Below, piece after piece: positions 27,668 to 64,000 of a stretch of DNA of 64,000 nucleotides; positions within the stretch are counted from its first letter, which is position 1, and each line of letters starts with the position of its first letter. Source of the DNA: Escherichia coli. GTDB lineage: Bacteria; Pseudomonadota; Gammaproteobacteria; Enterobacterales; Enterobacteriaceae. The DNA lies in assembly GCF_051903065.1 (NCBI RefSeq), contig NZ_CP178438.1. The stretch is one strand, 5' to 3'. Both the position numbers and the translations under genes were made by a program. The notes below the pieces were generated by a model. The model made no database searches. It had not been told where the DNA came from and saw only the letters and a program-made list of their open reading frames with translations.

Positions 27668-27684
27668 GGTTTATCGTTGGTTTA
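27668..27684 (+). promoter_or_regulatory. PhoP box direct repeat upstream of mgtA
   Basis: GGTTTA-tcgtt-GGTTTA direct repeat matches the PhoP box consensus. Confidence 0.6.
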
Positions 27685-49629: not shown

Positions 49630-50649
49630 TCAGAAGTCGGCTTTCAGGACCACTCGGTAGCGCGCTTTACCATCGCGCACATGCTTGATGGCGTCGTTAA
49701 TTTTCGACATCGGGAACAGTTCGGTAGTCGGCGCAACCTTGCTGCGGGCGGCAAAGCGCATCAGCTTACGCAACTCATAAGGCGTGCCGGTAGCAGAACC
49801 AGAGACGCTGCGGTCGCCCGCAATTAACGTAAAGGCCGGAACAGACAGCGGCGTGAGGACCGCACCGACCGTATGGAAATTACCGCCATAGGTCAGCGCC
49901 TCAAAATAGGGCTGCCAGTCGAGGCTGACGTTGACGGTGTTGATAATGAGATCAAACTGCCCCGCCAGTGCTTTCAGTGCCTGTGGATCGCGGCTATTCA
50001 CCACTTTATCGGCACCCATCGCCAGCACTTCCTGCTCTTTCGCCGGATTAGAACTAAAGGCCGTCACCTCGCATCCCATTGCGTGCAGAAGTTTTATAGC
50101 GATATGCCCCAGCCCGCCAATACCAATTACCCCAACGCGGCTGGTAGCAGTGATATGGTGCATCAACAGTGGTTTAAAGACCGTGATACCGCCGCACAAC
50201 AGCGGCCCGGCGGACTCGATATCAATATTTTCTGGCAGTGGAATCACCCATTGCCAGTCCGCACGCAACTTCTCGGCAAAGCCACCGCGATTCATAATCG
50301 TCGGCACCGCACCTTGCTCGCAGTTGATCTGATTACCGCTAATACAGGCGTCGCAGTGACCACAGCTACGCGCCGTCCAGCCAATCCCGACACGCTGACC
50401 GACCTGCAAACCTTTATCCTGCGCGGCGCTCCCGAGTGCCACCACGCGACCAATCACCTCATGCCCGGCAACCAGCGGATATTGTGAAAATCCCCATTCG
50501 TTATCGATCATCGACAGATCGGAATGGCAGATCCCGCAGTAATCCACCTGCACTTCAACATCTTGTGGCTTCAGTTCACCGGGATCGTACTCATAAACTT
50601 CCAGTTCGCCGCCTGCTTCTTTTGCGGCATAGCTTTTTATCATCGACAT
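49630..50649 (-). CDS. ahr: NADPH-dependent aldehyde reductase Ahr (Zn-dependent alcohol dehydrogenase family)
   Basis: [10 protein letters not shown]...GHEVIG...GIGGLGH motifs; 339 aa from ATG 50649. Confidence 0.9.
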
Positions 50650-50844
50650 TTTTTGGTCCTTCTCTGGTGTTGTCTGGGAAGTGTAGAGCATGGCAGGGCG
50701 GGGTGCCTGGAGTGTGACAAAGGTTACACATCGCTGTATGCAATGCTGAAAATTTCAGCACTTAGCAAAGTGGGTGCAAGCTGGCGCTTGCATGGTGGCG
50801 TGCGACAGGTATAATCCACAACGTTTTCCGCATACCTCTTCAGT

Positions 50845-50929
50845 GCCGAAGTGGCGAAATCGGTAGACGCAGTTGATTCAAAATCAACCGTAGAAATACG
50901 TGCCGGTTCGAGTCCGGCCTTCGGCACCA
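50845..50929 (+). tRNA. leuX: tRNA-Leu (anticodon CAA)
   Basis: 85-nt sequence gccgaagtggcgaaatcggtagacgcagttgattCAAaatcaacc...ggttcgagtccggccttcggcacca with D-arm, long variable arm, T-arm and CCA end. Confidence 0.95.
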
Positions 50930-50942
50930 AAAGTATGTAAAT

Positions 50943-50967
50943 AGACCTCAACTGAGGTCTTTTTTTA
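50943..50967 (+). terminator. rho-independent terminator of leuX
   Basis: Hairpin agacctc-aact-gaggtct followed by T7. Confidence 0.75.
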
Positions 50968-51042
50968 TGCCTGAAATCCAGTGTTTATCTACCTTTCCCG
51001 CTATATTAACTCTCTCAAGGTCAACCGATATCAACGTACATC

Positions 51043-51060
51043 TACCAACATATGTTGGTA
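51043..51060. promoter_or_regulatory. perfect 18-bp palindrome upstream of integrase gene
   Basis: taccaacatatgttggta, with a further half-site ttgtaccaacag about 40 bp downstream; possible integrase or repressor binding site. Confidence 0.3.
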
Positions 51061-51115
51061 CAGATGATGGTATTTCCGGTTCGATAATGCTTGTACCAAC
51101 AGGGAGGGAATACGC

Positions 51116-52381
51116 ATGGCATTAACAGATATCAAAGTCAGAGCAGCCAAGCCAACGGATAAGCAATATAAGCTGACTGATGGTGGCGGTATGCATCTGC
51201 TTGTCCATCCAAATGGTTCTAAGTACTGGCGTTTGCAGTACCGTTATGAGGGAAAGCAAAAAATGCTGGCACTTGGGGTTTATCCTGAAATCACACTAGC
51301 GGATGCCAGAGTACGTCGTGACGAGGCGCGTAAGCTGCTTGCGAATGGCGTCGATCCGGGAGACAAAAAGAAAAATGATAAGGTTGAACAGAGTAAAGCA
51401 CGAACCTTTAAAGAAGTCGCGATTGAGTGGCATGGCACCAATAAAAAGTGGTCTGAAGATCACGCCCATCGTGTGCTAAAAAGTCTGGAAGATAATCTTT
51501 TTGCAGCGCTTGGTGAACGTAATATCGCTGAGTTAAAAACTCGAGATTTATTAGCACCCATTAAGGCCGTAGAAATGTCTGGACGTCTTGAAGTGGCCGC
51601 TCGTCTTCAGCAGCGCACTACAGCCATCATGCGCTATGCAGTGCAAAGTGGGTTAATTGATTATAACCCGGCACAAGAGATGGCTGGGGCGGTTGCTTCC
51701 TGTAATCGACAACATCGTCCCGCGCTTGAATTAAAGCGCATCCCTGAGTTGCTTACAAAAATAGATAGCTATACTGGTAGGCCGCTAACCCGATGGGCGA
51801 CAGAACTCTCTTTGCTGATCTTTATTCGGTCCAGTGAGCTGCGTTTTGCTCGTTGGTCAGAGATCGATTTCGAAGCGTCTATATGGACTATCCCACCGGA
51901 GCGGGAGCCTATTCCTGGAGTGAAACATTCCCATAGAGGCTCAAAAATGCGTACAACGCATCTAGTGCCTCTTTCAACGCAAGCTCTTGCAATTTTAAAG
52001 CAGATAAAACAGTTTTGTGGGGCCCATGACTTGATATTTATTGGTGATCACGATTCGCACAAACCCATGAGTGAGAATACGGTAAATAGTGCGTTACGGG
52101 TCATGGGGTATGATACAAAAGTAGAGGTTTGTGGTCATGGCTTTCGAACAATGGCCTGTAGTTCATTGGTCGAATCAGGTTTGTGGTCTCGTGATGCTGT
52201 TGAACGTCAGATGAGCCACATGGAGCGAAATTCAGTGAGGGCCGCGTATATCCATAAAGCAGAGCATCTGGAAGAACGCCGCTTGATGCTACAATGGTGG
52301 GCCGATTTTCTGGATGCAAACAGAGAAAAATTTATCAGTCCATTTGAATATGCAAAGATTAATAATCCATTAAAACAGTAA
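51116..52381 (+). CDS. P4-type tyrosine integrase (IntB-like) marking a leuX-integrated island
   Basis: 421-aa ORF immediately 3' of a tRNA gene, N-terminal MALTDIKVRAAKP...KYWRL typical of P4 integrases, C-terminal catalytic region with conserved HxxR and Tyr; RBS agggaggg. Confidence 0.9.
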   Translation: MALTDIKVRAAKPTDKQYKLTDGGGMHLLVHPNGSKYWRLQYRYEGKQKMLALGVYPEITLADARVRRDEARKLLANGVDPGDKKKNDKVEQSKARTFKEVAIEWHGTNKKWSEDHAHRVLKSLEDNLFAALGERNIAELKTRDLLAPIKAVEMSGRLEVAARLQQRTTAIMRYAVQSGLIDYNPAQEMAGAVASCNRQHRPALELKRIPELLTKIDSYTGRPLTRWATELSLLIFIRSSELRFARWSEIDFEASIWTIPPEREPIPGVKHSHRGSKMRTTHLVPLSTQALAILKQIKQFCGAHDLIFIGDHDSHKPMSENTVNSALRVMGYDTKVEVCGHGFRTMACSSLVESGLWSRDAVERQMSHMERNSVRAAYIHKAEHLEERRLMLQWWADFLDANREKFISPFEYAKINNPLKQ

Positions 52382-52704
52382 TCATCCCGGGCAAATGCCC
52401 GGGAACTTACTCCATGAATATTTTCTTTGTTAAAAAGGCAAAACGATATTAACTGATGTATTAAATGTTTACCGGATTGCTCCCTGCAGGTGGATTATCA
52501 GAATCCGCAGTTATTCGTTATTTATATATATTCAATAAAAAGAAACATCATAAAAAATCCCGCACCCACAGGGTGATGCGGGATAACTGACGTAAGGAAT
52601 GTTACCGGGATTTGGTGGTCCCTTGTGCTGATATGAATACAGGTTCTATTCTATACAGAATCCTTTTCAGTACAAGAGACTGTATTACAGTTTGCCATAT
52701 ATGA

Positions 52705-54204
52705 TTACCTGTGGTCCGGAAGAATAAGTGGCTGCGGTTTCAGACTGTCTGCCGGCACATTTTTCTCTCCGTTAAAAACCATAACGGGTTCATTATCTTC
52801 GTCTGTCAGCGGATTGAATGGCGGTATATTTTCGGTACGAATACCGGTCAGCCACTGAAAAATGCCTGCGAAATTACGGGCACTGATTTTCCTGCTGACG
52901 GACTGATGAGACGTGATGTCACTGGCGGTAATAATCAGGGGAACGCTGTAGCCCCCCTGCACATGACCATCATGATGAACAGGATTAGCACTGTCGCTGA
53001 CCGACAGCCCATGGTCAGAAAAGTAAAGCATTGCAAAGTGACGGGAATGCCGGCGAAGGATACCATCAAGCTGACCGAGAAAGTTATCCAGTTTACTGAT
53101 GCTGGCGAGGTAACAGGCAATCTTTCGGGGATACTGCTCCAGGTAATAATTCGGCCAGGAGTTAAGTCGGTCACACGGATTCGGATGAGAGCCAATCATG
53201 TGCAGGAAAATCACCTTCGGCGAGGATTTATCCGCCAGCGCACGTTCTGTTTCCTGTAACAACAACATGTCATCCGTTTTACGGGAAGCGAAGCTGCCTT
53301 TCTTGAGGAAAACGGTATGCTCCGCATCAGAAGCAATAACAGAGATGCGTGTGTCATGCTCTCCCAGTTTTCCCTGATTGGATATCCACCATGTGCTGTA
53401 TCCTGCTTTTGCTGCCAGCGCCACCACGTTGTTGCCGGAGTCAGGGTTCTGCTCATAGTCATAAATCAGTGTCCGGCTCAGGGAAGGTACGGTACTGGCT
53501 GCTGTCGATGTATAGCCGTCAATAAATAAACCGGGAGCAGTATTCAGCCACGGCGTGGTTGGCACGGGATAGCCATATACCGACATATAATCCCTGCGCA
53601 CACTCTCACCAGTAACGATAACAATCGTGTCATACAACGGCACACCCGGCAGGATTTTCCAGTTATCAGCCCCGTGCTGACTCAGTTGTTTATAACGCTG
53701 CATTTCACGCAATGTGTCAGTTGTCCCCACAACAGTTCCTTTAACCATCCGCAACGGCCAGCTGTTTACAGAGCATAATACGAATAGCAGCAGTGCCAGC
53801 CAGTTACGGTGACCGCGGTGGTGTGTCCGCCAGAAAATCACCATGAATACCAGAATCGCGGCACTGACCAGAAAATGATAAACAGGAATCATCCCGGTAA
53901 ACTCTGCAGCCTCATCAGCCGTGGTCTGCAGCAACGCGACAATAAAACTGTTGTTGATTTTACCGTACGTCATACCCGCAGGCGCATACAGTGCACAACA
54001 GAACAGAAATAACAGCGCTGTAATGGATGTGAGGGTATTTCTGTGTGCAAGGAGAAGAAGGAGAAACAGAAGCAGCACATTTCCTGTGGCATTCTTCTCA
54101 GTGTATCCGCATGCAATTGTGGTTATTGCAGAAACAACAAAAAAGAATAAAAACAATAAAATCCGGGGTGTGTTTCCCGGACAAAACAGTTTTCTGATAT
54201 TCAT
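52705..54204 (-). CDS. sulfatase-family inner membrane protein, phosphoethanolamine transferase-like (EptA/OpgE family; yjgX-like)
   Basis: 499-aa ORF with N-terminal TM helices and C-terminal sulfatase-type domain (HMIGSH...SDHG). Confidence 0.75.
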   Translation of the reverse strand: MNIRKLFCPGNTPRILLFLFFFVVSAITTIACGYTEKNATGNVLLLFLLLLLAHRNTLTSITALLFLFCCALYAPAGMTYGKINNSFIVALLQTTADEAAEFTGMIPVYHFLVSAAILVFMVIFWRTHHRGHRNWLALLLFVLCSVNSWPLRMVKGTVVGTTDTLREMQRYKQLSQHGADNWKILPGVPLYDTIVIVTGESVRRDYMSVYGYPVPTTPWLNTAPGLFIDGYTSTAASTVPSLSRTLIYDYEQNPDSGNNVVALAAKAGYSTWWISNQGKLGEHDTRISVIASDAEHTVFLKKGSFASRKTDDMLLLQETERALADKSSPKVIFLHMIGSHPNPCDRLNSWPNYYLEQYPRKIACYLASISKLDNFLGQLDGILRRHSRHFAMLYFSDHGLSVSDSANPVHHDGHVQGGYSVPLIITASDITSHQSVSRKISARNFAGIFQWLTGIRTENIPPFNPLTDEDNEPVMVFNGEKNVPADSLKPQPLILPDHR

Positions 54205-54363
54205 CGGAGTATATCGACAACATTATGATGAAGAGAACAGGATAATAAAAATCAGAAATTATCTGTAAAACAGATAACAGACAACCCTGCAGTATAATTA
54301 CTGCAGGGTGTTTCCTTTTAATTACAGAAGATAAGTAATTATTATCTTTCAGGAGCAGTTTCG

Positions 54364-55104
54364 TCAGAAGTTATAAGTCACACCAAGCATGATGTCATGA
54401 CTTTTAACATCAACCTCTGATTTATATTTATCGCCCCACTCATCCTTGTAACTCACACTGCTGTCACCTGCATCAATATAGCGATAGCTGAGGTCAAGAG
54501 CGATATCCGGGGTTACGTCATAACGGACACCAGCCCCAAGGCTCCATGCAAAGTTGTCAGCAGAGTCTGAGTGTGACAACGACTCACGCCCACTGTACCC
54601 GTACCCATAATCCCAGGTACTGATACCAGTTGTTTTCTGATGAATTCTGGCGTAACCAATCCCTGCGGATACCCATGGTGTGAATGCACTGTCGTTCCGG
54701 AAGTCATAGTACGTATTCAGCATCAGAGTGTTGACTGACACTTCATTCTTCAGGTCATCACGCCAGTAACCACCTGACCAGCTGTCTTTATCTACGTTAT
54801 ACTTCGAATCAGCTTTTCCACGCGCGTAAAACTCCAGTTCTGTACGAACCGGAATACTGAACTGCGGATAAAAATCATAACCGGCCGCAATACCGCCACT
54901 GAATACCGTATCATGGTCATCGCCGCCTTTATACTTTGACGTTTCTTCCTCATCTCCTGACAGGAAACGCTGGTCTGAAAGTGACACCACAGAGGCACCG
55001 GCTTTACCGGTCAGATAAAAACCGCTTTTACCTTCCTCAGCACCTGCATTTGCTGCAAATACACAGGCTGCGGCCACCACTGAAACAGCAAAAACCTTTT
55101 TCAT
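54364..55104 (-). CDS. outer membrane beta-barrel protein (OmpA-like transmembrane domain family)
   Basis: 246-aa ORF with signal peptide MKKVFAVSVVAAACVFAANAGA, alternating aromatic/hydrophobic beta-strand pattern and C-terminal ...GVTYNF. Confidence 0.7.
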   Translation of the reverse strand: MKKVFAVSVVAAACVFAANAGAEEGKSGFYLTGKAGASVVSLSDQRFLSGDEEETSKYKGGDDHDTVFSGGIAAGYDFYPQFSIPVRTELEFYARGKADSKYNVDKDSWSGGYWRDDLKNEVSVNTLMLNTYYDFRNDSAFTPWVSAGIGYARIHQKTTGISTWDYGYGYSGRESLSHSDSADNFAWSLGAGVRYDVTPDIALDLSYRYIDAGDSSVSYKDEWGDKYKSEVDVKSHDIMLGVTYNF

Positions 55105-55455
55105 TTCAATTATCTCCGTTATTGCTCCGTTGCTGCAAGCAGTACTCAGTGCATTTTAAAACCCGCCATGCGATAGTCTCAATTGAATAAAATCGATCTA
55201 ATCGATAGATGATATCGATCGTCATTAACCAGAAATTTTTATCGTATTCAGTCAGCACAGATACAACAAATGCATGCCATGCAGACAGTCATACCCGGCA
55301 ACAACAGCAGATGGTTGCTGAGCAAGCAGGGAGTGAGGCTGAATCCCGGGGAAGAAAAAACCTGTAAAATTTGTTTATTCTGCCAGGAGATAAAAGTGAC
55401 GTGTGTTCATGTAACACACCAGGGACGAAAGATGCATGGACTGACAGTTTGGGGG

Positions 55456-56512
55456 GGCTTTGTTGAATAAATCGAACTTTTGCTGAGTTGAAGGATCAGA
55501 TCACGCATCCTCCCGACAACACAGACCATTCCGTGGCAAAGCAAAAGTTCAGAATCACCAACTGGTCCACCTACAACAAAGCTCTCATCAACCGTGGCTC
55601 CCTCACTTTCTGGCTGGATGATGAAGCGATTCAGGCCTGGTATGAGTCGGCAACGCCTTCATCACGAGGAAGGCCCCAGCGCTATTCTGATCTCGCCATC
55701 ACCACCGTTCTGGTGATTAAACGCGTATTCCGGCTGACCCTGCGGGCTGCGCAGGGTTTTATTGATTCCATTTTTGCCCTGATGAACGTTCCGTTGCGCT
55801 GCCCGGATTACACCAGTGTCAGTAAGCGGGCAAAGTCGGTTAATGTCAGTTTCAAAACGTCCACCCGGGGTGAAATCGCACACCTGGTGATTGATTCCAC
55901 CGGGCTGAAGGTCTTTGGTGAAGGCGAATGGAAAGTCAGAAAGCACGGCAAAGAGCGCCGTCGTATCTGGCGAAAGTTGCATCTTGCTGTTGACAGCAAC
56001 ACACATGAAGTTGTCTGTGCAGACCTGTCGCTGAATAACGTCACGGACTCAGAAGCCTTCCCGGGCCTTATCCGGCAGACTCACAGAAAAATCAGGGCAG
56101 CCGCGGCAGACGGGGCTTACGATACCCGGCTCTGTCACGATGAACTGCGCCGCAAAAAAATCAGCGCGCTTATTCCTCCCCGAAAAGGAGCAGGTTACTG
56201 GCCCGGTGAGTACGCAGACCGCAACCGTGCCGTTGCTAATCAGCGGCTGAGCGGAAGCAATGCACGGTGGAAATGGACAACGGAATATAACCGTCGCTCG
56301 ATAGCGGAAACGGCAATGTACAGAATGAAGCAGTTGTTGGGAGATTCACTGACGCTGCGTGACTACGATGGTCAGGTAGCGGAAGCTATGGCCATGGTGC
56401 GTGCGTTGAACAGGATGACAAAGGCTGGGATGCCAGAAAGCGTGCGTATTGCCTGAAAATCCAGCCAGCTACAGGGTCGTTCGCACGAAATCTTATTTAT
56501 TCAACAAAGCCC
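55456..56512 (+). mobile_element. IS903-group insertion sequence (IS5 family), about 1057 bp
   Basis: Left end ggctttgttgaataaatcgaacttttgctgagttgaaggatcag and inverted right end ...tcttatttattcaacaaagcc; single transposase ORF; no flanking 9-bp direct repeat. Confidence 0.85.
55533..56456 (+). CDS. IS903-type transposase (DDE)
   Basis: ORF VAKQKFRITNWSTYNKALINRGSLTFWLDDEAIQAWYE...; start placed at in-frame GTG to give 307 aa (tool ORF begins at TTG 55488). Confidence 0.85.
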   Translation: MAKQKFRITNWSTYNKALINRGSLTFWLDDEAIQAWYESATPSSRGRPQRYSDLAITTVLVIKRVFRLTLRAAQGFIDSIFALMNVPLRCPDYTSVSKRAKSVNVSFKTSTRGEIAHLVIDSTGLKVFGEGEWKVRKHGKERRRIWRKLHLAVDSNTHEVVCADLSLNNVTDSEAFPGLIRQTHRKIRAAAADGAYDTRLCHDELRRKKISALIPPRKGAGYWPGEYADRNRAVANQRLSGSNARWKWTTEYNRRSIAETAMYRMKQLLGDSLTLRDYDGQVAEAMAMVRALNRMTKAGMPESVRIA

Positions 56513-57624
56513 ATACCCCTCTGAAAATCAGTCATCAACTCACCAACACATCTTCTGAAATCTGTATTAAACTTATTGCTTAAATAGATGATATAACACA
56601 TCTTCCATTGCACGGAATCAGCGAAAACTGTCATTCTGGCAATCTTAACAAGATCATTTATCGGTTAATTTTATCAGTAAACAATGGAATATCACACTGA
56701 TAAAATGAACATTCAGGGTAAGATGATAAAATTCACATAAAAAATGCTGAAGATTATTTATTTCATGCAGATAAACGATAAAATACAAGAGAGTATATTT
56801 TTCAGTGTAAGAGTCAATCGTTCATCTCCACTGACGATCACGGTCAGCACATAAACAAAGTGAGTCCTCCTGCTTAGTCATTGCGTATCAGAAACTAAAA
56901 AACAAAAGATTCTGTAAACAACGTGACATTTTTTATGACATTTCCCGAATACAGATATATCAACAAACAGTAGTCAGCGTTGAATTAATAAGTTTTACAG
57001 GGCTATACGTATCTTATAAAACCACTCAACGACCATCATCACCTGACTATTTAGCGGGAGTATCATCTGTATAAATTCCTAAATAATAACACCTGTTATT
57101 AAAATAAGAATGCTGTCAGCAGTAAATTATTAACATAACACCTGTCCACTCTATCTGTTCTTCTAACTCAACCGGCATCGAAAATATTGCCTGATTAGTG
57201 CATCATAGCCTTCTTTTTTCTTTCCCGACCATCAAAACAAATACAACATTTACAACCACACAATAAAACAAAACTAAAACAAAACTAAAACATAAGATTA
57301 ACAACACCAATCAACAGGAAAACACTGAATATTGAGGTGCCCTGTAACCTGGAGAGCGCATACGGCGCATGTGATCAACACAGCCCATTCTTTTCTGTCA
57401 TCCCCCAAATGCAGAACAAACAAGCATAACCTAATGAATATAAAATAAAATATTATTTTTCACCATCATAAAAACATCAATGTATCTTTATATAAAAACA
57501 CTGATAACATGACATAAACATTTAAAAACATAAACAAATCACAACAAAAACATTTGATAATCACTTAGTGACAAAATAAAATTGAGACGATTTTGTTATA
57601 AGAGAGGCGCCATGGAGTGAGATA

Positions 57625-58644
57625 ATGAATAACGAACAGATGCTTATCAAATGCAAAGATCCCCGTAAATGTCGGTTTTATGCTGAATATCTGAATCACA
57701 AATACCCCAATGAATTCCCTCAGTTTGCGCCTGACAACCCACAAAACTGTATCAGAAATGTTAATGCGTTTTTAAAAGAAAAGTATTGTAATACTTCAAA
57801 CAATTCTTTTGGTGTTTTTGGTTCGACTGCAGAAGAAGCTCTCAGCAAAGAAATTAATGAACTTGAAATTATTGCAGGGCAGGCAATACTGCCTGAAGAG
57901 AGTTTTCTCTGGTTGAAAACTGACGAACTTGCGACTTTCTTTACCTGGACTACTATTTATCTGTCGAAGGAAGACCATACAAATTTCCCGGAAATAAACC
58001 ATAATTCATCAGGGATAAAAAACGGAATTGAAGTCAGAAAAAGACGAACAGTTACCGATGAAACGTTAAATACTTACAAAAAAAGTAACCTTCCGGATAA
58101 TCCATCATCCCATAACGAACGAATAAAAGTAATCATTTTATATTTTGATTCCTGTCATTCTTTAATTAATAAAAATGCAAAAAGCATATACCTCGAGGAA
58201 CTCAGGCAGACGTGGCTTAAAAATAAAAGCGCTTGTCAAAAGTTTAAGTGGCTCCTTCCTGACGATGATGAAATGTGTCAGTGGTTCTGGACAAGACTGA
58301 AACAAAAACAGGATGAAACACATCCGGTACATAACCCGGTGACCCGGTGGTTCATACCATCTTCAACGAAAGAATATTATCTTGCCTCTCTCGTCGCCTT
58401 TGCTTTATGGAAAGAGGCACCTGATACCATTGAACTGTTCAGAACACGCATAAATCATGCCTGGCATCAAAAAAAACAAAAAGACAAATATCGGAATGAT
58501 GGTAAAAAGGCTATTAATATACATATAAGAAGCAATGCGAAAGAAATGCTTGATGAACTCAGAACTGTTTACGGTCTGAGAACAGGAGAGTTTTTTGAAA
58601 TGCTGATTACAGAAAAATATCTTGAACACAAGCGAAGGAAGTAA
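57625..58644 (+). CDS. hypothetical protein, AT-rich orphan ORF
   Basis: 339-aa ORF with RBS ggagtgag upstream; lysine/asparagine-rich, several Cys/His; no family recognised from sequence alone. Confidence 0.5.
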   Translation: MNNEQMLIKCKDPRKCRFYAEYLNHKYPNEFPQFAPDNPQNCIRNVNAFLKEKYCNTSNNSFGVFGSTAEEALSKEINELEIIAGQAILPEESFLWLKTDELATFFTWTTIYLSKEDHTNFPEINHNSSGIKNGIEVRKRRTVTDETLNTYKKSNLPDNPSSHNERIKVIILYFDSCHSLINKNAKSIYLEELRQTWLKNKSACQKFKWLLPDDDEMCQWFWTRLKQKQDETHPVHNPVTRWFIPSSTKEYYLASLVAFALWKEAPDTIELFRTRINHAWHQKKQKDKYRNDGKKAINIHIRSNAKEMLDELRTVYGLRTGEFFEMLITEKYLEHKRRK

Positions 58645-58695
58645 TTCATTACCTGTTACATTCTAAATAATCTCAGACAGATATTATCTCCGTGA

Positions 58696-58731
58696 ATCCC
58701 CCGCCACCTTTCCGGTGCGCGGGGTTTTGTC
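58696..58731 (+). terminator. putative rho-independent terminator downstream of the 339-aa ORF
   Basis: GC-rich inverted repeat ccccgc...gcgggg followed by ttttgtctttttt. Confidence 0.45.
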
Positions 58732-58753
58732 TTTTTTCACCGGGAATACATGT

Positions 58754-59581
58754 ATGAATCCGTCTGATGCCATTGAGGCAATTGAAAAACCGCTCTCCTC
58801 CCTGCCTTACTCACTTTCCCGTCACATCCTGGAACATCTGCGCAAACTCACCAGCCACGAACCCGTGATTGGCATTATGGGGAAAAGCGGGGCCGGTAAA
58901 TCCTCACTCTGTAATGCACTGTTTCAGGGGGAGGTCACCCCGGTCAGTGATGTTCACGCCGGCACCCGGGAAGTGCAGCGCTTCCGTCTGAGTGGCCATG
59001 GTCACAGCATGGTTATCACTGACCTGCCCGGGGTGGGCGAGAGCCGTGACAGGGATGCAGAGTATGAAGCCCTGTACCGTAACATTCTGCCTGAACTTGA
59101 CCTGGTACTGTGGCTGATTAAAGCCGATGACCGTGCCTTGTCTGTGGATGAGTATTTCTGGCGACACATTCTGCACCGGGGACATCAGCAGGTGCTGTTT
59201 GTGGTGACGCAGGCCGATAAAACGGAGCCCTGCCATGAATGGGATATGGCCGGTATTCAGCCTTCTCCCGCACAGGCACAGAACATTCGCGAAAAAACGG
59301 AGGCGGTATTCCGTCTGTTCCGGCCCGTACATCCGGTTGTGGCCGTATCGGCTCGCACCGGCTGGGAACTGGATACGCTGGTCAGTGCGCTCATGACAGC
59401 GCTTCCCGACCATGCCGCCAGTCCCCTGATGACCCGCCTGCAGGACGAGCTGCGCACGGAATCTGTCCGCGCTCAGGCCCGTGAACAGTTTACCGGTGCG
59501 GTGGACCGGATATTTGACACGGCGGAGAGCGTCTGTATTGCCTCTGTTGCCCGCGCGGTATGGAACTGGATTTTCTTCTGA
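58754..59581 (+). CDS. YfjP/YeeP/YkfA-family small GTPase (prophage-like island backbone GTPase)
   Basis: P-loop GIMGKSGAGKSSLCNALF, G3 DLPGVGE, G4-like TQADK, C-terminal ...ARAVWNWIFF resembling K-12 YfjP/YkfA from memory; start at ATG 58754 (tool ORF starts at GTG 58715). Confidence 0.8.
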   Translation: MNPSDAIEAIEKPLSSLPYSLSRHILEHLRKLTSHEPVIGIMGKSGAGKSSLCNALFQGEVTPVSDVHAGTREVQRFRLSGHGHSMVITDLPGVGESRDRDAEYEALYRNILPELDLVLWLIKADDRALSVDEYFWRHILHRGHQQVLFVVTQADKTEPCHEWDMAGIQPSPAQAQNIREKTEAVFRLFRPVHPVVAVSARTGWELDTLVSALMTALPDHAASPLMTRLQDELRTESVRAQAREQFTGAVDRIFDTAESVCIASVARAVWNWIFF

Positions 59582-59701
59582 ACCCGGTGGTGATGCACCA
59601 GACTCTTGTTACAGATTTTTAACTCCATGAAAACACAATGCAAACGCAGCCATACCCGGGTTGTCCCCTTGTGTTGTGTTTTCCAGATTAATAGAATGCA
59701 T

Positions 59702-59720
59702 CGATCGTTATAAACGATCG
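59702..59720. promoter_or_regulatory. perfect inverted repeat (cgatcgtt-ata-aacgatcg) about 60 bp upstream of the dynamin-like gene
   Basis: 8-bp arms with 3-bp spacer in the 200-bp gap between the two GTPase genes; candidate operator. Confidence 0.3.
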
Positions 59721-59780
59721 TTTGTGGTAAATGACCTCCTCCGTGGTTGTCATGAAAATGCGTCTCAGGAAGGTTAAATA

Positions 59781-62165
59781 ATGCACGAAAAGAACATCGC
59801 CCTGCTTTGTGATGAAGCCGACCGACTTTTGCAACTGAACATTAATCTGCTCCGGCAAATGGTTGATGAACCGGATGTGTTATCTGACAGTAAGAACGAA
59901 AACAGACTGCTTTTCGATAAACAGAAAGCACTGAAAAGAATTGAGGAGCTGGAGGGCGAACAAATCAAAACCGCCCGCAGGGAGATGGTGCTGGCTGTTG
60001 TCGGCACGATGAAAGCAGGTAAATCAACTACCATCAACGCCATTGTGGGGCAGGAAATTCTGCCTAACCGTAACCGCCCCATGACCTCTGTACCGACGCT
60101 CATCCGCCACGTTCCCGGAAAAACTGAGCCGGTCCTCCATCTGGAACATATTCAGCCCGTCCGCAATTTATTAAGCACACTGCAACAAAAACTCGACACC
60201 CCGGCAGGACAGCAAGTCGCACAGACCCTGCAGCAAACCGGGGATACCTGCGAACTGCTGGATATTCTGGCAAATGATGGCTGGCTCAAAAATGAATACC
60301 ACGGGGAGGAGGAAATCTTTACCGGACTGGCATCGTTAAACGATCTGGTTCGCCTTGCTGCGGCAATGGGGAGTGAGTTTCCTTTTGATGAATACGCAGA
60401 AGTGCAGAAACTGCCGGTGATCGACGTGGAATTCAGCCATCTGGTGGGGATGGATGCATGCCAGGGAACACTCACACTGCTGGATACCCCCGGCCCTAAT
60501 GAGGCCGGACAACCGCAGATGGAAGTGATGATGCGGGATCAACTGCAGAAAGCCTCTGCGGTGCTGGCGGTGATGGATTACACCCAGATGAACTCAAAAG
60601 CGGATGAAGACGTCCGTAAAGAGCTTAATGCCATTGCTGACGTATCAGCCGGCCGCCTGTTTGTGCTGGTCAATAAATTTGATGAGAAAGACCGCAATGG
60701 CGATGGGGCAGATGCCGTACGCCAGAAAGTTCCGGCAATGCTGAACAGTGATGTGCTGCCCGCCTCCCGCGTTTATCCAGGCTCATCACGTCAGGCGTAC
60801 CTGGCTAACCGTGCGCTTCATGAGTTACGGAAAAACGGAACCCTTCCTGTTGATGAAGCCTGGGTCGATGATTTTGTCAGGGAAGCCTTCGGTCGCATGA
60901 AAAAAGAATACGTCTGTAAAGACAGTGAAATGGCAACCGAAGGGGCGACAGACCTGTGGGAAGGTTCACTTATCGATCAACTGATAACGGAAGTCATACA
61001 GAGCTCCCATTCCAGAGCGGCGGCACTGGCGGTTGATTCTGCCGCCGCAAAACTGATGCAGAATGCGGAAAATGTCAGCGAATATCTGTCATTACGCCAT
61101 CAGGGGCTACAGCAAAGCATTCAGTCACTGCAGGCGCATATCTCCAGCCTGCTGGCGGATATCCGGGAAATCGCGGACTGTCAGGAGCAGGTGACCGCAG
61201 ATGTCAGAATGGCTATGGAGGAGATCGATACTAAAACCCGGGAATTACTGACGGGGGTCTGCACCTCACTGGAAGAGGAGCTGAATGACTATTTCAGAAG
61301 CGGTAAACGCAAAGAACAGCAAATGCTGGAGGAAGAAAATTCAGCGCAGCCCCGGGAGAGAAACGCATTCGCTTTCTTTCACGATATTTTCGGAACCGGA
61401 AATCAGCATGACAGGATGCGGGACTTTGATCCGGACAGCCCCGAAATAAAATTCAGTGATCGCAGGGAAGCCCTTGAACTGATGACGCAAATCGAATCGA
61501 CCGTGACCAGCCTGCACCGTGAGGCTGAAGCACAGTTCCGTCCTGAACTGGAAAAAATCGTCAGGGGTATTGAAACAGGTTTTCGTGGTACGGCCCTGTA
61601 CGCCACAGAAAATATTGCCGGACGCATCAATGCCCGTCTGGAGGATGAAGGTTTCACTGTAAAAATCAGTTTTCCGGCAGTCAGCCAGTTACAGACCCGG
61701 CTCGCAGTAAAAACAAATCTGAGCGCGCTTATGGAGGAAAGAACGGAGACCGTCACTCGTCGCTGTCGACAGGATGGTGTCTGGGGTACGCTTTGTCGAT
61801 GGGCAAACACCAGTGACTGGGGCTGGAAAGAGTACAGTGTGGATGTGAGCCGCAGCGTGATCAATATCAACAAGGTCAGAGAGGAAGTGATGTCACTGAC
61901 CCGGGCATATTTCGGGGAGCTGCAGGCATCCATTGAGCAGGATATTAACCAGCCCGTCCGCCAGGAAATCGATGCCTTTTTCTGCGCATTCAGGGAGAAA
62001 GTTGAACAACTGCGTAACACGCTGATTCAGAGCTCTGAAGATCGTAAACGCGATCAGCAGGCGCAGGAACGGCTTACCGGGCGACTTCAGGCATTAAATG
62101 AAAGGGTTCCTGAGCTCATTACTGACAGTAAGGCGCTGAGGGAAGAGCTGGAGACAATGCTGTGA
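59781..62165 (+). CDS. bacterial dynamin-like large GTPase
   Basis: 794-aa ORF; G1 VVGTMKAGKSTTINAIVG (res 73-90), G3 LLDTPGPNE, G4 VLVNKFDEKD, followed by about 500 aa of helical/coiled-coil stalk-like sequence; RBS caggaagg 7 nt upstream. Confidence 0.8.
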   Translation: MHEKNIALLCDEADRLLQLNINLLRQMVDEPDVLSDSKNENRLLFDKQKALKRIEELEGEQIKTARREMVLAVVGTMKAGKSTTINAIVGQEILPNRNRPMTSVPTLIRHVPGKTEPVLHLEHIQPVRNLLSTLQQKLDTPAGQQVAQTLQQTGDTCELLDILANDGWLKNEYHGEEEIFTGLASLNDLVRLAAAMGSEFPFDEYAEVQKLPVIDVEFSHLVGMDACQGTLTLLDTPGPNEAGQPQMEVMMRDQLQKASAVLAVMDYTQMNSKADEDVRKELNAIADVSAGRLFVLVNKFDEKDRNGDGADAVRQKVPAMLNSDVLPASRVYPGSSRQAYLANRALHELRKNGTLPVDEAWVDDFVREAFGRMKKEYVCKDSEMATEGATDLWEGSLIDQLITEVIQSSHSRAAALAVDSAAAKLMQNAENVSEYLSLRHQGLQQSIQSLQAHISSLLADIREIADCQEQVTADVRMAMEEIDTKTRELLTGVCTSLEEELNDYFRSGKRKEQQMLEEENSAQPRERNAFAFFHDIFGTGNQHDRMRDFDPDSPEIKFSDRREALELMTQIESTVTSLHREAEAQFRPELEKIVRGIETGFRGTALYATENIAGRINARLEDEGFTVKISFPAVSQLQTRLAVKTNLSALMEERTETVTRRCRQDGVWGTLCRWANTSDWGWKEYSVDVSRSVININKVREEVMSLTRAYFGELQASIEQDINQPVRQEIDAFFCAFREKVEQLRNTLIQSSEDRKRDQQAQERLTGRLQALNERVPELITDSKALREELETML

Positions 62166-63067
62166 CTTCACCATTTATTCAACAAATTGCTGATAACCGG
62201 GTATGTCAGGTACTCACCTGTCTTCCTGAAAAATTTGTGGTTGATTTCGCAAACGGAATCGATGTTGCACAGGAGCATATCCGCACGGCCGGAGAGCGCA
62301 CGTTCTTCCGGCGTTTAAAAGAGGGGATGACCGGCGAAGGCGCTGCACGGCAGAATGCCATCAATGCTTCGCTTGCACAGGGCGTTGAGGCGTCCCTGCG
62401 CTGGCTGACGGAGCTGACAACGTCACTTGCCACCACAAACTACGCGATTACCCGGGTAAACGACAGGGTCAGTTCACTGGTCAGTGATACTGCCAGGCTG
62501 GCGCATTATTCGGCTGACACGCGGGAGCAGTTACTCACCCTGGCCGATCAGGTTCACCAGAAACTGAATCATCTTGAAGAAAAACTCCACCGTGTTGACC
62601 AGGTTCAGCGGGCGCAGTTACATCTTGAGCAGATATTCTCATGGTGGAGCGCCGGGCGATATGCGTCATTTTCCCCTGCCGGACGTTGTTATGTGGCACT
62701 TGAAGAGCTTCGCTGGGGCGCGTTTGGTGATGTGATACGCCAGGGCGAAACAGGCCAGGTTAACCAGCTACTGGATATTCTCAGACATAAAGCATTAACG
62801 CAGATGGCACAGGAGAGTGGCGGTAGTGCAACCGTGCGTCTGAACACTCTGGACTGGCTTGGTGGTCAGGGCCGGGAGCAGGCAGATAACGAGTGGCATG
62901 ACGCGATTAACTGGCTGGGGGACTGGTGCAGTGAAGAGCAGCATCCGGTGATCTGGTCAACCACGCAGGCTGCAGAACACTTACCGGTTCGCATGCCTCG
63001 CCTCTGCTCTGCAGAACGCCTCTCTGAAAGTATGGTCGATGAAATATTTCAGAAGGGGGCAGCATGA
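62162..63067 (+). CDS. hypothetical protein of unknown function, translationally coupled to flanking genes
   Basis: 301-aa ORF whose GTG start overlaps the upstream stop (GTGA) and whose stop overlaps the downstream ATG (ATGA); predicted helical middle region. Confidence 0.55.
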   Translation: MTSPFIQQIADNRVCQVLTCLPEKFVVDFANGIDVAQEHIRTAGERTFFRRLKEGMTGEGAARQNAINASLAQGVEASLRWLTELTTSLATTNYAITRVNDRVSSLVSDTARLAHYSADTREQLLTLADQVHQKLNHLEEKLHRVDQVQRAQLHLEQIFSWWSAGRYASFSPAGRCYVALEELRWGAFGDVIRQGETGQVNQLLDILRHKALTQMAQESGGSATVRLNTLDWLGGQGREQADNEWHDAINWLGDWCSEEQHPVIWSTTQAAEHLPVRMPRLCSAERLSESMVDEIFQKGAA

Positions 63068-64000
63068 GTACAGAAATGAAAACGGGGCTGGTGCTGTCCG
63101 GCGGCGGGGCGGTGGGCGCTTATCAGGCAGGTGTGGTTAAGGCACTGGCAGAGTGTGGCACACAGATCAGCATGGTTTCAGGGGCCAGCATTGGCGCATT
63201 CAATGGTGCCATTATCGCGGCCTCTCCCGATCTGTCAGAAGCAGCCGCACGCCTGGAGGCGCTCTGGAAGCATCTGGGGAATAATCAGGTGCTGTCGGTA
63301 AACCGATCGGTTTACTTTTCATTGCTGAAAAAAATGGTTCAGGCCATGAACCTCTGCCAGATCCCCGGACGTGCAGGAGCACTGCTTACGACACTTCTTC
63401 GCCATATATCGATAATCAACGGCTTCGACAATCCGATGGCTCAGCCGCTGTTGTCAGATGAGCCTCTGACAGCGCTGTTGGATCATTATCTTGATACTGA
63501 TGCTCTGGCAGACGGGCTACCGCTGTATGTGTCGCTGTACCCCACAGAAGGGGGCATGCAGGATATTATTGACTGCATTCGTGCTGAACTGGGTGCCGGA
63601 ACCACGAAAAACGCCGTTTTTCAGCATATCCAGAGCCTGCCCCGCGGACAGCAGAAAGAGGCTCTGCTTGCGTCAGCCGCGCTGCCCCTGCTGTTCCGTC
63701 CCCGTGAGGTTCAGGGGACAATGTTCGGTGATGGTGGTATGGGAGGATGGCGAAATATGCAGGGAAATACCCCTGTGACGCCTCTGGTCGATGCCGGATG
63801 CAATATGGTGATTGTGACGCATCTGAGTGACGGTTCTTTATGGGATCGCCAGGCTTTTCCGGACACCACAATCCTTGAGATCCGTCCCCGGAAAAGGCTG
63901 AAATATGCAGGTGATGGTGGCAACAGCGGCGGTCTGCTCAGTTTCACGTTGGCACATACCGACGCCTGGCGTCAGCAGGGCTATGAAGACACGATGCTGA
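63064..64000 (+). CDS. patatin-like phospholipase (3' end beyond window)
   Basis: Oxyanion-hole GGGAVGAY, catalytic Ser in GASIG (GxSxG) and catalytic Asp in FGDGGM (DGG) in the correct order and spacing; ORF is open to the window end. Confidence 0.8.
   Translation, partial: MSTEMKTGLVLSGGGAVGAYQAGVVKALAECGTQISMVSGASIGAFNGAIIAASPDLSEAAARLEALWKHLGNNQVLSVNRSVYFSLLKKMVQAMNLCQIPGRAGALLTTLLRHISIINGFDNPMAQPLLSDEPLTALLDHYLDTDALADGLPLYVSLYPTEGGMQDIIDCIRAELGAGTTKNAVFQHIQSLPRGQQKEALLASAALPLLFRPREVQGTMFGDGGMGGWRNMQGNTPVTPLVDAGCNMVIVTHLSDGSLWDRQAFPDTTILEIRPRKRLKYAGDGGNSGGLLSFTLAHTDAWRQQGYEDTML

Follow-up and report, generated by a model that had tools for sequence, protein, structure and literature searches.

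A predicted YjgX-family phosphoethanolamine transferase co-inherited with an Hra1/Hek-type adhesin in tRNA-associated islands of Escherichia coli

What the genes next to the integrase of the leuX island encode, and which molecule an envelope-modifying enzyme among them would act on, is the question raised by this locus in a 64,000-nucleotide stretch of Escherichia coli DNA (contig NZ_CP178438.1; hereafter the window). The initial annotation described two minus-strand genes there, one for a 499-aa phosphoethanolamine (pEtN) transferase-like protein and one for a 246-aa outer-membrane beta-barrel protein, and both open reading frames were found exactly as claimed (Table 1). Given the position of the integrase gene, these two genes are the first cargo past it. 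No frameshifts or internal stops were seen in either gene, and both match alleles of 499 aa and 246 aa from other strains over their whole length, in agreement with the earlier description of the pair as intact. The segment 52400-55480 is 100% identical to strain GDSC2BY4G, for which the RefSeq annotation gives WP_021552159.1 'phosphoethanolamine transferase' and WP_000755102.1 'outer membrane protein', and the exact protein sequences are present on 555 (transferase) and 806 (barrel) public contigs. An IS903-like element forms the module boundary 350 bp upstream of the adhesin gene, and a 9-bp target duplication around this element was absent. At the other end, a terminator-like hairpin lies about 120 nt past the transferase stop codon. 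An Rfam scan of 50500-57700 returned nothing beyond the tRNA and a sub-threshold chance match on a hairpin.

Table 1. Positions of the features at the leuX end of the island, in window coordinates.
Feature	Position	Strand	Basis or remark
tRNA-Leu(CAA) leuX, island integration site	50845..50929	+	ARAGORN; Rfam tRNA, 59 bits
P4-type tyrosine integrase, 421 aa, intact	51116..52381	+	Pfam Arm-DNA-bind_3, Phage_int_M, Phage_integrase
Intrinsic-terminator-like hairpin, 10-bp stem with 6 GC pairs, then T run	52557..52584	-	Consensus
YjgX-family (predicted) phosphoethanolamine transferase gene, 499 aa	52705..54204	-	ORF, Pfam, AF2, homologs
Sigma-70 promoter-like site TTTACA, 16-nt spacer, TATTAT	54242..54269	-	10/12 consensus matches only
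Perfect 11-bp hairpin ACCCTGCAGTA-ATTA-TACTGCAGGGT, terminator-like, weak T tail	54284..54309	-	3' of adhesin gene
Hra1/Hek-type (predicted) outer-membrane adhesin gene, 246 aa	54364..55104	-	ORF, Pfam, AF2, identity to Hra1
Sigma-70 promoter-like site TTGAGA, 18-nt spacer, TAAAAT	55153..55182	-	10/12 consensus matches only
IS903-like IS5-family element, 18-bp perfect terminal inverted repeats, 322-aa ORF	55455..56512	+	

As judged from its sequence and predicted structure, the 499-aa protein is a complete pEtN transferase-type membrane protein of the sulfatase family. Pfam searches returned the Sulfatase domain (PF00884, 7e-37) and EptA_B_N (6.9e-5, just above the cutoff). The AF2 model (pLDDT 89, pTM 0.82) has an N-terminal domain of five membrane helices (residues 14-31, 39-53, 57-80, 108-127 and 135-145), a bridging helix (149-177) and a periplasmic alpha/beta domain of the sulfatase fold that starts at residue 190, and Foldseek and Pfam agree with this two-domain architecture. 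Foldseek matched the model best to the catalytic domain of EptC from E. coli (E 1e-18), with further matches to full-length MCR-1 (TMq 0.64) and to EptA of N. meningitidis, and the predicted fold corresponds to 6a82, 9nww and 5fgn, structures of the EptA/MCR-1/EptC group. The predicted catalytic residues are Glu200, Thr238 (the nucleophile), His335/His340, Asp397, His398 and His411, of which the last is conserved in at least 90% and all the others are invariant in 46 homologs. These residues align with the GE(S/T), T-S-T and SDHG motifs of MCR-1 and EptC, and together they comprise the threonine nucleophile and the Glu/Asp/His metal ligands of pEtN transferases. The earlier assignment to pEtN transferase-like membrane proteins of the sulfatase family was borne out by the Pfam domain searches, the HMMs and the fold, while domain, HMM and structure matches to pEtN transferases ruled out an arylsulfatase.

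The more specific label 'EptA-like' is misleading, since no K-12 paralog is more distant from the window transferase than EptA (45 bits, with 22% identity limited to the catalytic domain). OpgE is the closest K-12 paralog, with 30% identity over the full length (233 bits, 4e-74), and the gonococcal Dca open reading frame, which we take to be PptA from its position between murE and murF, shares 32% identity over 492 aligned columns (204 bits). Other paralogs scored lower: YhbX 107 bits, EptC 92 bits (25% by BLASTP, catalytic domain only) and EptB 55 bits. In the NJ tree, YjgX, OpgE and PptA were grouped with 98% bootstrap support, with YhbX, EptA, EptB and EptC outside. Within this group, the window protein lies in a separate YjgX branch and not in the OpgE clade (P0058, P0063, P0065 and P0069), and it is thus not grouped as an OpgE ortholog. 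For all family members at least 35% identical to the window protein, OpgE was the best-scoring K-12 paralog. The best NCBIfam model was the CptA subfamily (5.9e-31), but its score was 107.6 bits against a cutoff of 404. Every NCBIfam EptA, EptB, CptA and MCR model scored far under its cutoff, with 39-57 bits for the EptA models against 561-660 (39 against 660 for EptA) and 18-31 bits for the MCR models against about 1075-1250. Since OpgE itself and gonococcal Dca/PptA are also assigned no specific NCBIfam family, and no structure of the OpgE/PptA clade appeared among the transferase structure matches, the top rank of CptA/EptC by HMM and by structure may reflect gaps in these libraries. The tree and the pairwise comparisons place the YjgX family as a third branch, beside OpgE and PptA, of one pEtN transferase clade.

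K-12 carries a copy of this gene, yjgX (b4575), which is a pseudogene at the same position after leuX-intB. Its nucleotide identity is 91.5% over window 52621-53891 (the 3' 1.27 kb), and its aligned residues are 92% identical to the window transferase; this high identity and the shared position after leuX and an integrase assign the window gene to the YjgX family. The K-12 and window flanks are collinear, from ahr up to and including the integrase. K-12 lacks roughly the first 104 codons of yjgX as well as the entire barrel gene, while the remaining part of yjgX contains one frameshift and two in-frame stops, and its Asp397-His398 metal site has become Gly-Leu. In addition, IS2K is inserted just downstream of yjgX, and intB, the K-12 counterpart of the window integrase, is a pseudogene by the K-12 annotation. 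The initial annotation had pointed to a disrupted yjgX at leuX in K-12, and the alignment, which identifies K-12 yjgX as a decayed ortholog of the window transferase, confirms this. Its suggestion that the window holds the intact ancestral form stands only loosely: the window allele is intact and marginally the closest to K-12, but all intact alleles sampled share about 91% identity with the remnant. Deletion of yjgX in K-12 came up as a false positive in a screen of the Keio collection.

The 246-aa protein had been described as an outer-membrane beta-barrel, and this description holds, although it left anonymous a protein whose sequence and model identify it as an Hra1/Hek-type adhesin. Pfam returned OMP_b-brl (3e-22), and the protein has a Sec signal peptide, an eight-stranded barrel and a C-terminal YNF; the AF2 model (8 strands, pLDDT 86) matches the folds of NspA, the OmpA membrane domain and Ail. 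This is the architecture of the Hra family, whose members are outer-membrane proteins of roughly 25 kDa that have a signal peptide, eight strands and a C-terminal aromatic residue. The barrel is 89.8% identical to Hra1 of EAEC 042 and 64% identical to Tia of H10407, and is thus at or above about 60% identity to characterised members of the group Hra1, Hek, Hes, Tia and Hra2; the exact sequence is named 'Heat resistant agglutinin 1' in one source. The value for Tia fits the 65% identity between Tia and Hes, a close relative of Hra1 (PMC5539235). Either hra1 or hes alone confers haemagglutination, autoaggregation and adherence on HB101 (PMC5539235), and judged from these close relatives the window adhesin should by itself mediate the same three phenotypes. 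Hra1 of EAEC 042 also shares the order of integrase, transferase and barrel, but lies at pheV, whereas the window module is at leuX. Within the Hra family the window barrel is a distinct allele, with differences mostly in predicted surface loops, and its upstream regulatory region (55105-55454) was found in only 109 of 5426 genomes.

Between the two genes, the stem of the hairpin is kept in 6 of 6 E. coli alleles aligned while its loop varies, and most E. coli alleles also retain the promoter-like site, which lies 38 nt before the start codon of the transferase gene. Because this conserved hairpin and promoter-like site separate them, the adhesin and transferase genes are probably transcribed separately, and for the same reason a strict operon reading of the pair was rejected as unproven. 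Another promoter-like site is located upstream of the adhesin gene. Pattern scans for PhoP boxes and PmrA boxes upstream of both genes gave no site.

At least 80% of the module is present in 1093 of 5426 complete E. coli genomes (about 20%), and a near-full-length copy of the transferase gene is present in 1450 genomes. The pair is found in E. coli at leuX, pheV or pheU, usually beside an integrase. The order barrel-then-transferase on the same strand recurs in E. coli, in Salmonella and in metagenome relatives with a transferase 56-58% identical to that of the window, and the transferase is partnered by barrels of the Hra1 type, by others of the Tia type (64%) and by ones with 74% and 71% identity to the window barrel. 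Across 12 targeted neighbourhoods, which gave a consistent picture and left out P0012 (66% identical, no contig on record), a barrel gene lay upstream of every transferase relative examined at 56% identity or more. Transferase homologs of 52% identity or less had no barrel neighbour, Hra-like barrels of 56-61% identity had no transferase neighbour, and Tia in H10407 lies near a YhbX-type enzyme instead. Both genes diverge together (transferase 57%, barrel 50-53%), and the transferase is 97% conserved even where the adjoining barrel is only 64% identical. With a dN/dS of 0.09-0.18 between alleles, the transferase is under purifying selection. Loss was also seen: among rows sampled from 3006 matching genomes, K-12-type remnants truncated at the 5' end accounted for about 30% (an estimate from this sample), IS21 and IS1 insertions also occur, and some strains have an intact barrel gene with a disrupted transferase gene. 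Since it is often lost or disrupted, the transferase is dispensable. Taken together, these results show that the module is a two-gene pair travelling in tRNA-associated genomic islands of E. coli and Salmonella, usually adjoining an integrase.

The gene content itself is already known, since RefSeq contains the exact proteins, roughly one in five complete E. coli genomes has the pair, and the two genes already stand side by side in published island maps, with the transferase entered as 'sulfatase, unknown'. In module I of the LAA pathogenicity island the pair appears as ORF4 'sulfatase' and ORF5 hes, and in GIselC17584/1 as CDS 5-6; those islands are inserted at pheV or selC with different cargo, and there too the transferase has no assigned function. 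Neither protein matched an anti-phage defence family in PADLOC, and the search of PHROGs led no further than families lacking annotation and a weak match to Lom. The phage collection yielded only weak partial matches (24-27% identity) to unannotated or 'arylsulfatase' records, which ruled out the transferase as a phage moron. A 2023 review of 11 pEtN transferase classes does not mention the YjgX family (PMC10525099), and our search of the literature on yjgX, on Hra/Hek/Tia together with a pEtN transferase and on island-borne transferases found gene lists only and no functional study.

We favour, with a probability of about 0.6, the reading that the locus is an intact island module in which an Hra1/Hek adhesin and a YjgX-family inner-membrane pEtN transferase are co-inherited, and in which the acceptor of the transferase is probably not lipid A. 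Phosphatidylethanolamine would serve as the pEtN donor on the periplasmic side of the inner membrane, and the transfer would run via a covalent Thr238 intermediate at a zinc site of Glu200, Asp397 and His398. The pEtN group would then pass to a periplasm-exposed acceptor, for which a glycan (either a periplasmic glucan or a sugar of LPS) or a protein that is secreted or sits in the envelope is more likely than lipid A. Among the named enzymes, OpgE (YbiP) is the pEtN transferase for osmoregulated periplasmic glucans (class IX) and Dca/PptA of Neisseria is a pilin phospho-form transferase (class XI) (PMC10525099). OpgE resembles the window transferase in its full-length similarity, its clade and its catalytic residues, but it is a core gene, whereas the window transferase is island-borne, on a separate branch and about 28 residues shorter. 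Likewise, Dca/PptA shares the clade, yet PptA is encoded in a cell-division gene cluster and targets pilin. The LPS-directed enzymes with solved structures, EptA, MCR-1 and EptC, share the architecture and the zinc/threonine active site, but are only 22-25% identical in the catalytic domain only and fall outside the clade. Homology at the level of 30-32% identity to OpgE and PptA does not allow acceptor specificity to be transferred.

Several other activities were weighed against this reading. An LPS-directed enzyme, acting on core heptose phosphate like EptC/CptA or on lipid A like EptA/MCR, would change surface charge, cationic-peptide resistance or phage receptors. The initial annotation had suggested such effects on LPS or phage receptors; the CptA subfamily is indeed the best NCBIfam model, and among solved structures both sequence and fold point first to the catalytic domain of E. 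coli EptC. However, the low model scores relative to their cutoffs, pairwise matches to EptC, EptB and EptA that are two to five times weaker than those to OpgE/PptA and limited to the catalytic domain, the well-supported placement of these three enzymes outside the clade, and the absence of both PmrA-box or PhoP-box-like sites upstream and PADLOC matches make this activity unlikely. That the transferase is a second OpgE, redundant with core opgE in adding pEtN to osmoregulated periplasmic glucans, would agree with the full-length similarity to OpgE, membrane domain included, and with the OpgE-best scores of the closer family members; we nevertheless regard it as quite unlikely, since the YjgX family branches outside the OpgE clade, a redundant copy of a core function on mobile islands would not be expected to keep a dN/dS of about 0.1, and the role of glucan decoration is itself unclear (PMC10525099). 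It is very improbable that the transferase is a functionless hitch-hiker heading to decay while the adhesin alone matters: the truncated remnants and IS insertions are what such a course would leave, but the number of near-full-length copies, the low dN/dS with an invariant catalytic site, and the conservation of the transferase beside a far more divergent barrel all argue against it.

The conserved gene order raises the matter of a protein acceptor. A PptA-like, protein-directed transferase would attach pEtN to the Hra-family adhesin inherited with it, or to some other envelope protein, and so tune aggregation, antigenicity or receptor binding; for PptA itself, PilE and two lipoproteins are given as substrates (PMC10525099). 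The barrel-then-transferase order in all closer relatives, across varied barrel types and two genera, is consistent with this activity, as are the joint divergence of the two genes and the clade shared with the gonococcal homolog, although the last point depends on our equation of dca with pptA. Against it, hra1 and hes give full adhesin phenotypes alone in HB101, a host that would share the dead yjgX of K-12 by inference, and the hairpin and separate promoter-like site lie between the genes. Moreover, the more distant homologs and barrels lack each other as neighbours, the H10407 Tia gene has a YhbX-type neighbour, and the barrel stays intact in some strains that have a disrupted transferase. 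We give a protein-directed activity only a slim chance. The stronger proposal by analogy, that the YjgX-family enzyme is a dedicated partner of Hra adhesins, adding pEtN to the adhesin in the periplasm or to the surrounding LPS/glycan, would account for the persistence of the pair across allele swaps, different tRNA sites and two genera; it is offered as speculation with odds just as slim, and the consequence, if true, would be a change in antigenicity, in aggregation, in binding to the host or in recognition by phages.

On our preferred reading of a co-inherited adhesin and transferase, the remaining interest of the locus is the chemistry, that is, a branch of predicted pEtN transferases that is under purifying selection and lies beside a virulence-island integrase and a known adhesin. 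Describing the enzyme as 'OpgE/PptA-like' rather than 'EptA-like' has practical weight for annotation, since the label 'lipid A phosphoethanolamine transferase', which is sometimes given to the gene, wrongly points to a determinant of colistin resistance. If the acceptor is a surface protein or an LPS sugar, its modification would matter for adhesion, for antigenic variation and for susceptibility to phages or antimicrobial peptides in ExPEC, EAEC and STEC.

The transferase-adhesin pair studied here is a known, widespread island module. Because tRNA-Leu(CAA) and a P4-type integrase lie upstream, the pair is the first cargo past the integrase; the initial annotation had put it there, and the positions of the ORFs, the tRNA and the integrase bear this out. 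The observation that it recorded, an intact EptA-like protein and a barrel gene beside the integrase, was confirmed as a whole, while its interpretation was supported in part and has since been refined. Over 52400-55480, the window and E. coli strain GDSC2BY4G do not differ (100% identity); in that strain, RefSeq names the products 'phosphoethanolamine transferase' (WP_021552159.1) and 'outer membrane protein' (WP_000755102.1), and the exact sequences occur on 555 (transferase) and 806 (barrel) public contigs. The core flank has a G+C content of about 55%, and the pair one of 38-50%. Somewhere in 56456-57625 the window has 11 bp more than GDSC2BY4G, and gene coordinates are offset by 11.

Positions of the gene pair and neighbouring elements in the window
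Feature	Position	Strand	Details
tRNA-Leu(CAA)	50845-50929		
P4-type integrase	51116-52381		421 aa
Strong terminator-like hairpin	52557-52584		after transferase
Transferase ORF	52705-54204	-	499 aa; ORF call
Promoter-like site	54242-54269		within 159-bp intergenic gap
Perfect 11-bp hairpin	54284-54309		within 159-bp intergenic gap
Barrel ORF	54364-55104	-	246 aa; ORF call
IS903-like IS5-family element	55455-56512		perfect 18-bp terminal inverted repeats
Cluster downstream of the IS	57625-64000		339-aa protein, 288-aa GTPase, 794-aa dynamin-family, 301-aa RdcB-family, patatin-like phospholipase

In MG1655, the gene order is ahr, leuX, intB (pseudogene), IS2K and yjgX (pseudogene), and the K-12 locus aligned with window positions 49630-52626 (97.5% identity) and 52621-53891 (91.5% identity), with IS2K exactly between both blocks, downstream of yjgX. 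This gene order and alignment show that K-12 does carry a disrupted yjgX at leuX, in agreement with the initial annotation. K-12 yjgX spans only residues ~93 to 499; it is broken by a frameshift near codon 177 and by two in-frame stops, and its metal-binding Asp397-His398 has become Gly-Leu. Since homology ends at 53891, K-12 is without the first ~104 codons and the entire barrel gene. The remnant is ~91% identical to each intact allele sampled, the window allele being closest by a slight margin, and K-12-type remnants with the identical breakpoint are found in many further complete E. coli genomes.

The transferase matched the Pfam families Sulfatase (7e-37) and, barely over the cutoff, EptA_B_N (6.9e-5). 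Its NCBIfam matches were all sub-threshold; the top one was the CptA subfamily (107.6 bits, where the cutoff is 404), with much weaker matches to the EptA and MCR models. Among solved structures, sequence relatives were limited to the E. coli EptC catalytic domain (1e-17) and MCR-1 (~3e-4), and in these alignments the GES, T-S-T and SDHG motifs are in register. In a 46-sequence alignment, Glu200, Thr238, His335, His340, Asp397 and His398 are invariant and His411 is kept in at least 90%. This alignment was the basis of an AlphaFold model (pLDDT 89.3, pTM 0.82) that comprises five membrane helices at the N-terminus, a long bridging helix and an alpha/beta domain. In Foldseek, the model came closest to the E. 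coli EptC domain (1e-18) and to MCR-1 (TMq 0.64) and N. meningitidis EptA, both as full-length structures. Arylsulfatases ranked far lower, and therefore the protein does not group with an unrelated sulfatase family, the grouping against which the initial annotation had proposed to check it.

We compared the window protein pairwise with five K-12 paralogs. OpgE scored highest (233 bits, 30% identity, residues 20-492), followed by YhbX (107 bits, 33%, 247 columns), EptC (92 bits, 25%, 313 columns), EptB (55 bits, 24%, 268 columns) and EptA (45 bits, 22%, 244 columns). A gonococcal ORF between murE and murF, the interval where published work locates dca, scored 204 bits against the window protein (32% over 492 columns) and 234 bits against OpgE. 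We take dca and pptA to be one gene and hence name this ORF Dca/PptA. In a neighbour-joining tree (100 bootstraps), the YjgX family, the OpgE clade and Dca/PptA form one group with 98% support, with YhbX, EptC, EptB and EptA outside, and the YjgX family is a branch of its own (65% support). In the 2023 review of phosphoethanolamine transferases, which does not mention YjgX, OpgE is class IX, acting on periplasmic glucans, and PptA is class XI, acting on pilin and two lipoproteins (PMC10525099). Thus, the description 'EptA-like' holds for the phosphoethanolamine transferase type and is otherwise imprecise, EptA being the weakest of the five paralogs and outside the 98% group. The YjgX-family enzyme may act on a glycan or on a protein; of the possible acceptors, lipid A has the least support. 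In K-12, opgE (850450-852597), the closest characterised relative, is convergent with the adjoining ompX, a small 8-stranded barrel; this adjacency may be an echo of the island pair or a coincidence.

The barrel matched Pfam OMP_b-brl (3e-22). AlphaFold modelled it with eight long strands and a signal helix (pLDDT 86), and the model is similar in structure to NspA, the OmpA membrane domain, Ail and OmpW. The protein shares 89.8% identity with the transferase-adjoining barrel of EAEC 042, the strain from which the hra1 clone of PMC5539235 came, and 64% with Tia of ETEC H10407. The exact sequence is called 'Heat resistant agglutinin 1' in one source, sequences that cluster with it go by the names Hek or Tia, and alleles differ mainly in predicted loops.

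At least 80% of the two-gene region was present in 1093 of 5426 complete E. coli genomes, a near-full-length transferase gene in 1450 and an Hra-family barrel gene (down to ~68% nucleotide identity) in 1757. The pair lies beside a P4-type integrase at leuX (window, strain Z247), at the tRNA-Phe adjoining yqgA (pheV site; strains 042 and AR_0151) and, with a Tia-type barrel and an adjacent pap operon, at a second tRNA-Phe site (dsbD, dicD) in E7. Relatives with a 56-58% identical transferase (a Salmonella genome and two metagenome contigs) have an Hra-like barrel directly upstream on the same strand, diverged in parallel (50-53% identity), and barrels 74% and 71% identical to the window's retain a transferase neighbour. 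In the neighbourhoods examined, no barrel adjoined transferases of 52% identity or less (IncI-group conjugative plasmids, one IncK2/Z; Erwinia, Enterobacter lignolyticus, Pantoea, Aquitalea), and no transferase adjoined barrels of 56-61% identity. The E. coli transferase alleles have dN/dS of 0.09-0.18. The window and E7 enzymes share 97.4% protein identity although the adjacent E7 barrel is only 64% identical, and therefore the enzyme stays conserved as the adjoining barrel diverges or is exchanged.

In the H10407 selC island (L036/L037), tia, leoC, leoB, leoA and then a 557-aa transferase lie on one strand. With 65% identity to YhbX, this enzyme belongs to the YhbX type and not to the YjgX type, and therefore a second, different family of island-borne transferases occurs near an Hra-family adhesin: in H10407, where Tia was defined, Tia is near a YhbX-type enzyme, whereas in the window an Hra1-type barrel is beside a YjgX-type one. 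E. coli plasmids, more than 100 of them, carry a 511-aa paralog with 52% identity to the window transferase, and most matching records are typed conjugative (L021, L006/L007). In pO111-CRL-115 (L021; IncK2/Z, the only record typed), it follows a DUF2569 gene near the surface-exclusion gene excA, with no adjoining barrel gene. Some records label it 'lipid A phosphoethanolamine transferase'; we saw no evidence supporting this label.

The intergenic hairpin stem is kept in six of six aligned E. coli alleles with a variable loop, and the promoter-like region is largely conserved among them; the Salmonella spacer is unrelated. Because the conserved hairpin and the promoter-like site lie between the genes, the sequence argues for, rather than proves, separate transcription units, with read-through possible. 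A pattern scan found no PhoP-box- or PmrA-box-like sites upstream of either gene. Elsewhere in the window, a direct-repeat proxy for the PhoP box matched perfectly at 27668-27684 (GGTTTATCGTTGGTTTA), and with up to two mismatches it occurred 27 times in the whole window versus 12.8 expected, about twofold. The 350 bp upstream of the adhesin (55105-55454) were found in 109 of 5426 genomes versus more than 1000 for the coding pair, and in most alleles homology to the window extends no further than ~20 bp from the start codon of the adhesin gene; regulatory regions therefore differ between modules.

Conserved pairing with Hra-family adhesins, together with the kinship of the YjgX family to the protein-modifying PptA, would fit an enzyme and adhesin that work together. 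We consider such a partnership improbable, since cloned adhesins function alone, there are signs of separate transcription and either gene is found without the other. Indeed, hra1 and hes, each cloned alone in HB101, conferred haemagglutination, autoaggregation, biofilm formation and adherence (PMC5539235). Published island maps list the transferase gene without a function: ORF4 of LAA, adjoining hes, is given as 'sulfatase, unknown', and a 2024 pheV island study mentions tia and not the transferase. Our literature search found no functional study of a YjgX-family transferase.

Beyond the adhesin, the IS903-like element has perfect terminal repeats but its flanks (left ...GTTTGGGGG, right CATACCCCT...) lack a matching 9-bp target duplication, which points to an IS-mediated deletion or junction where the adhesin upstream region meets the AT-rich DNA (33-37% G+C) that comes next. 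In the cluster downstream, the 339-aa protein matched no family and the phospholipase gene continues past the window end. This cluster recalls the H10407 tia-leoCBA neighbourhood but is not homologous at the BLASTP sensitivity used: PADLOC gave only weak LeoBC and LeoA matches, and BLASTP against LeoA, LeoB and LeoC of H10407 gave none. In other islands, the interval from the integrase to the pair holds a 1171-aa protein that matches MkoC of the Mokosh defence system with 1686 bits (L019 3381-6896; L003 4381-7896), and EAEC 042 and AR_0151 have a TerB-N / ATPase / DEAD-box helicase trio after the pair. The DNA beside the integrase acts as a site for variable cargo, defence systems included.
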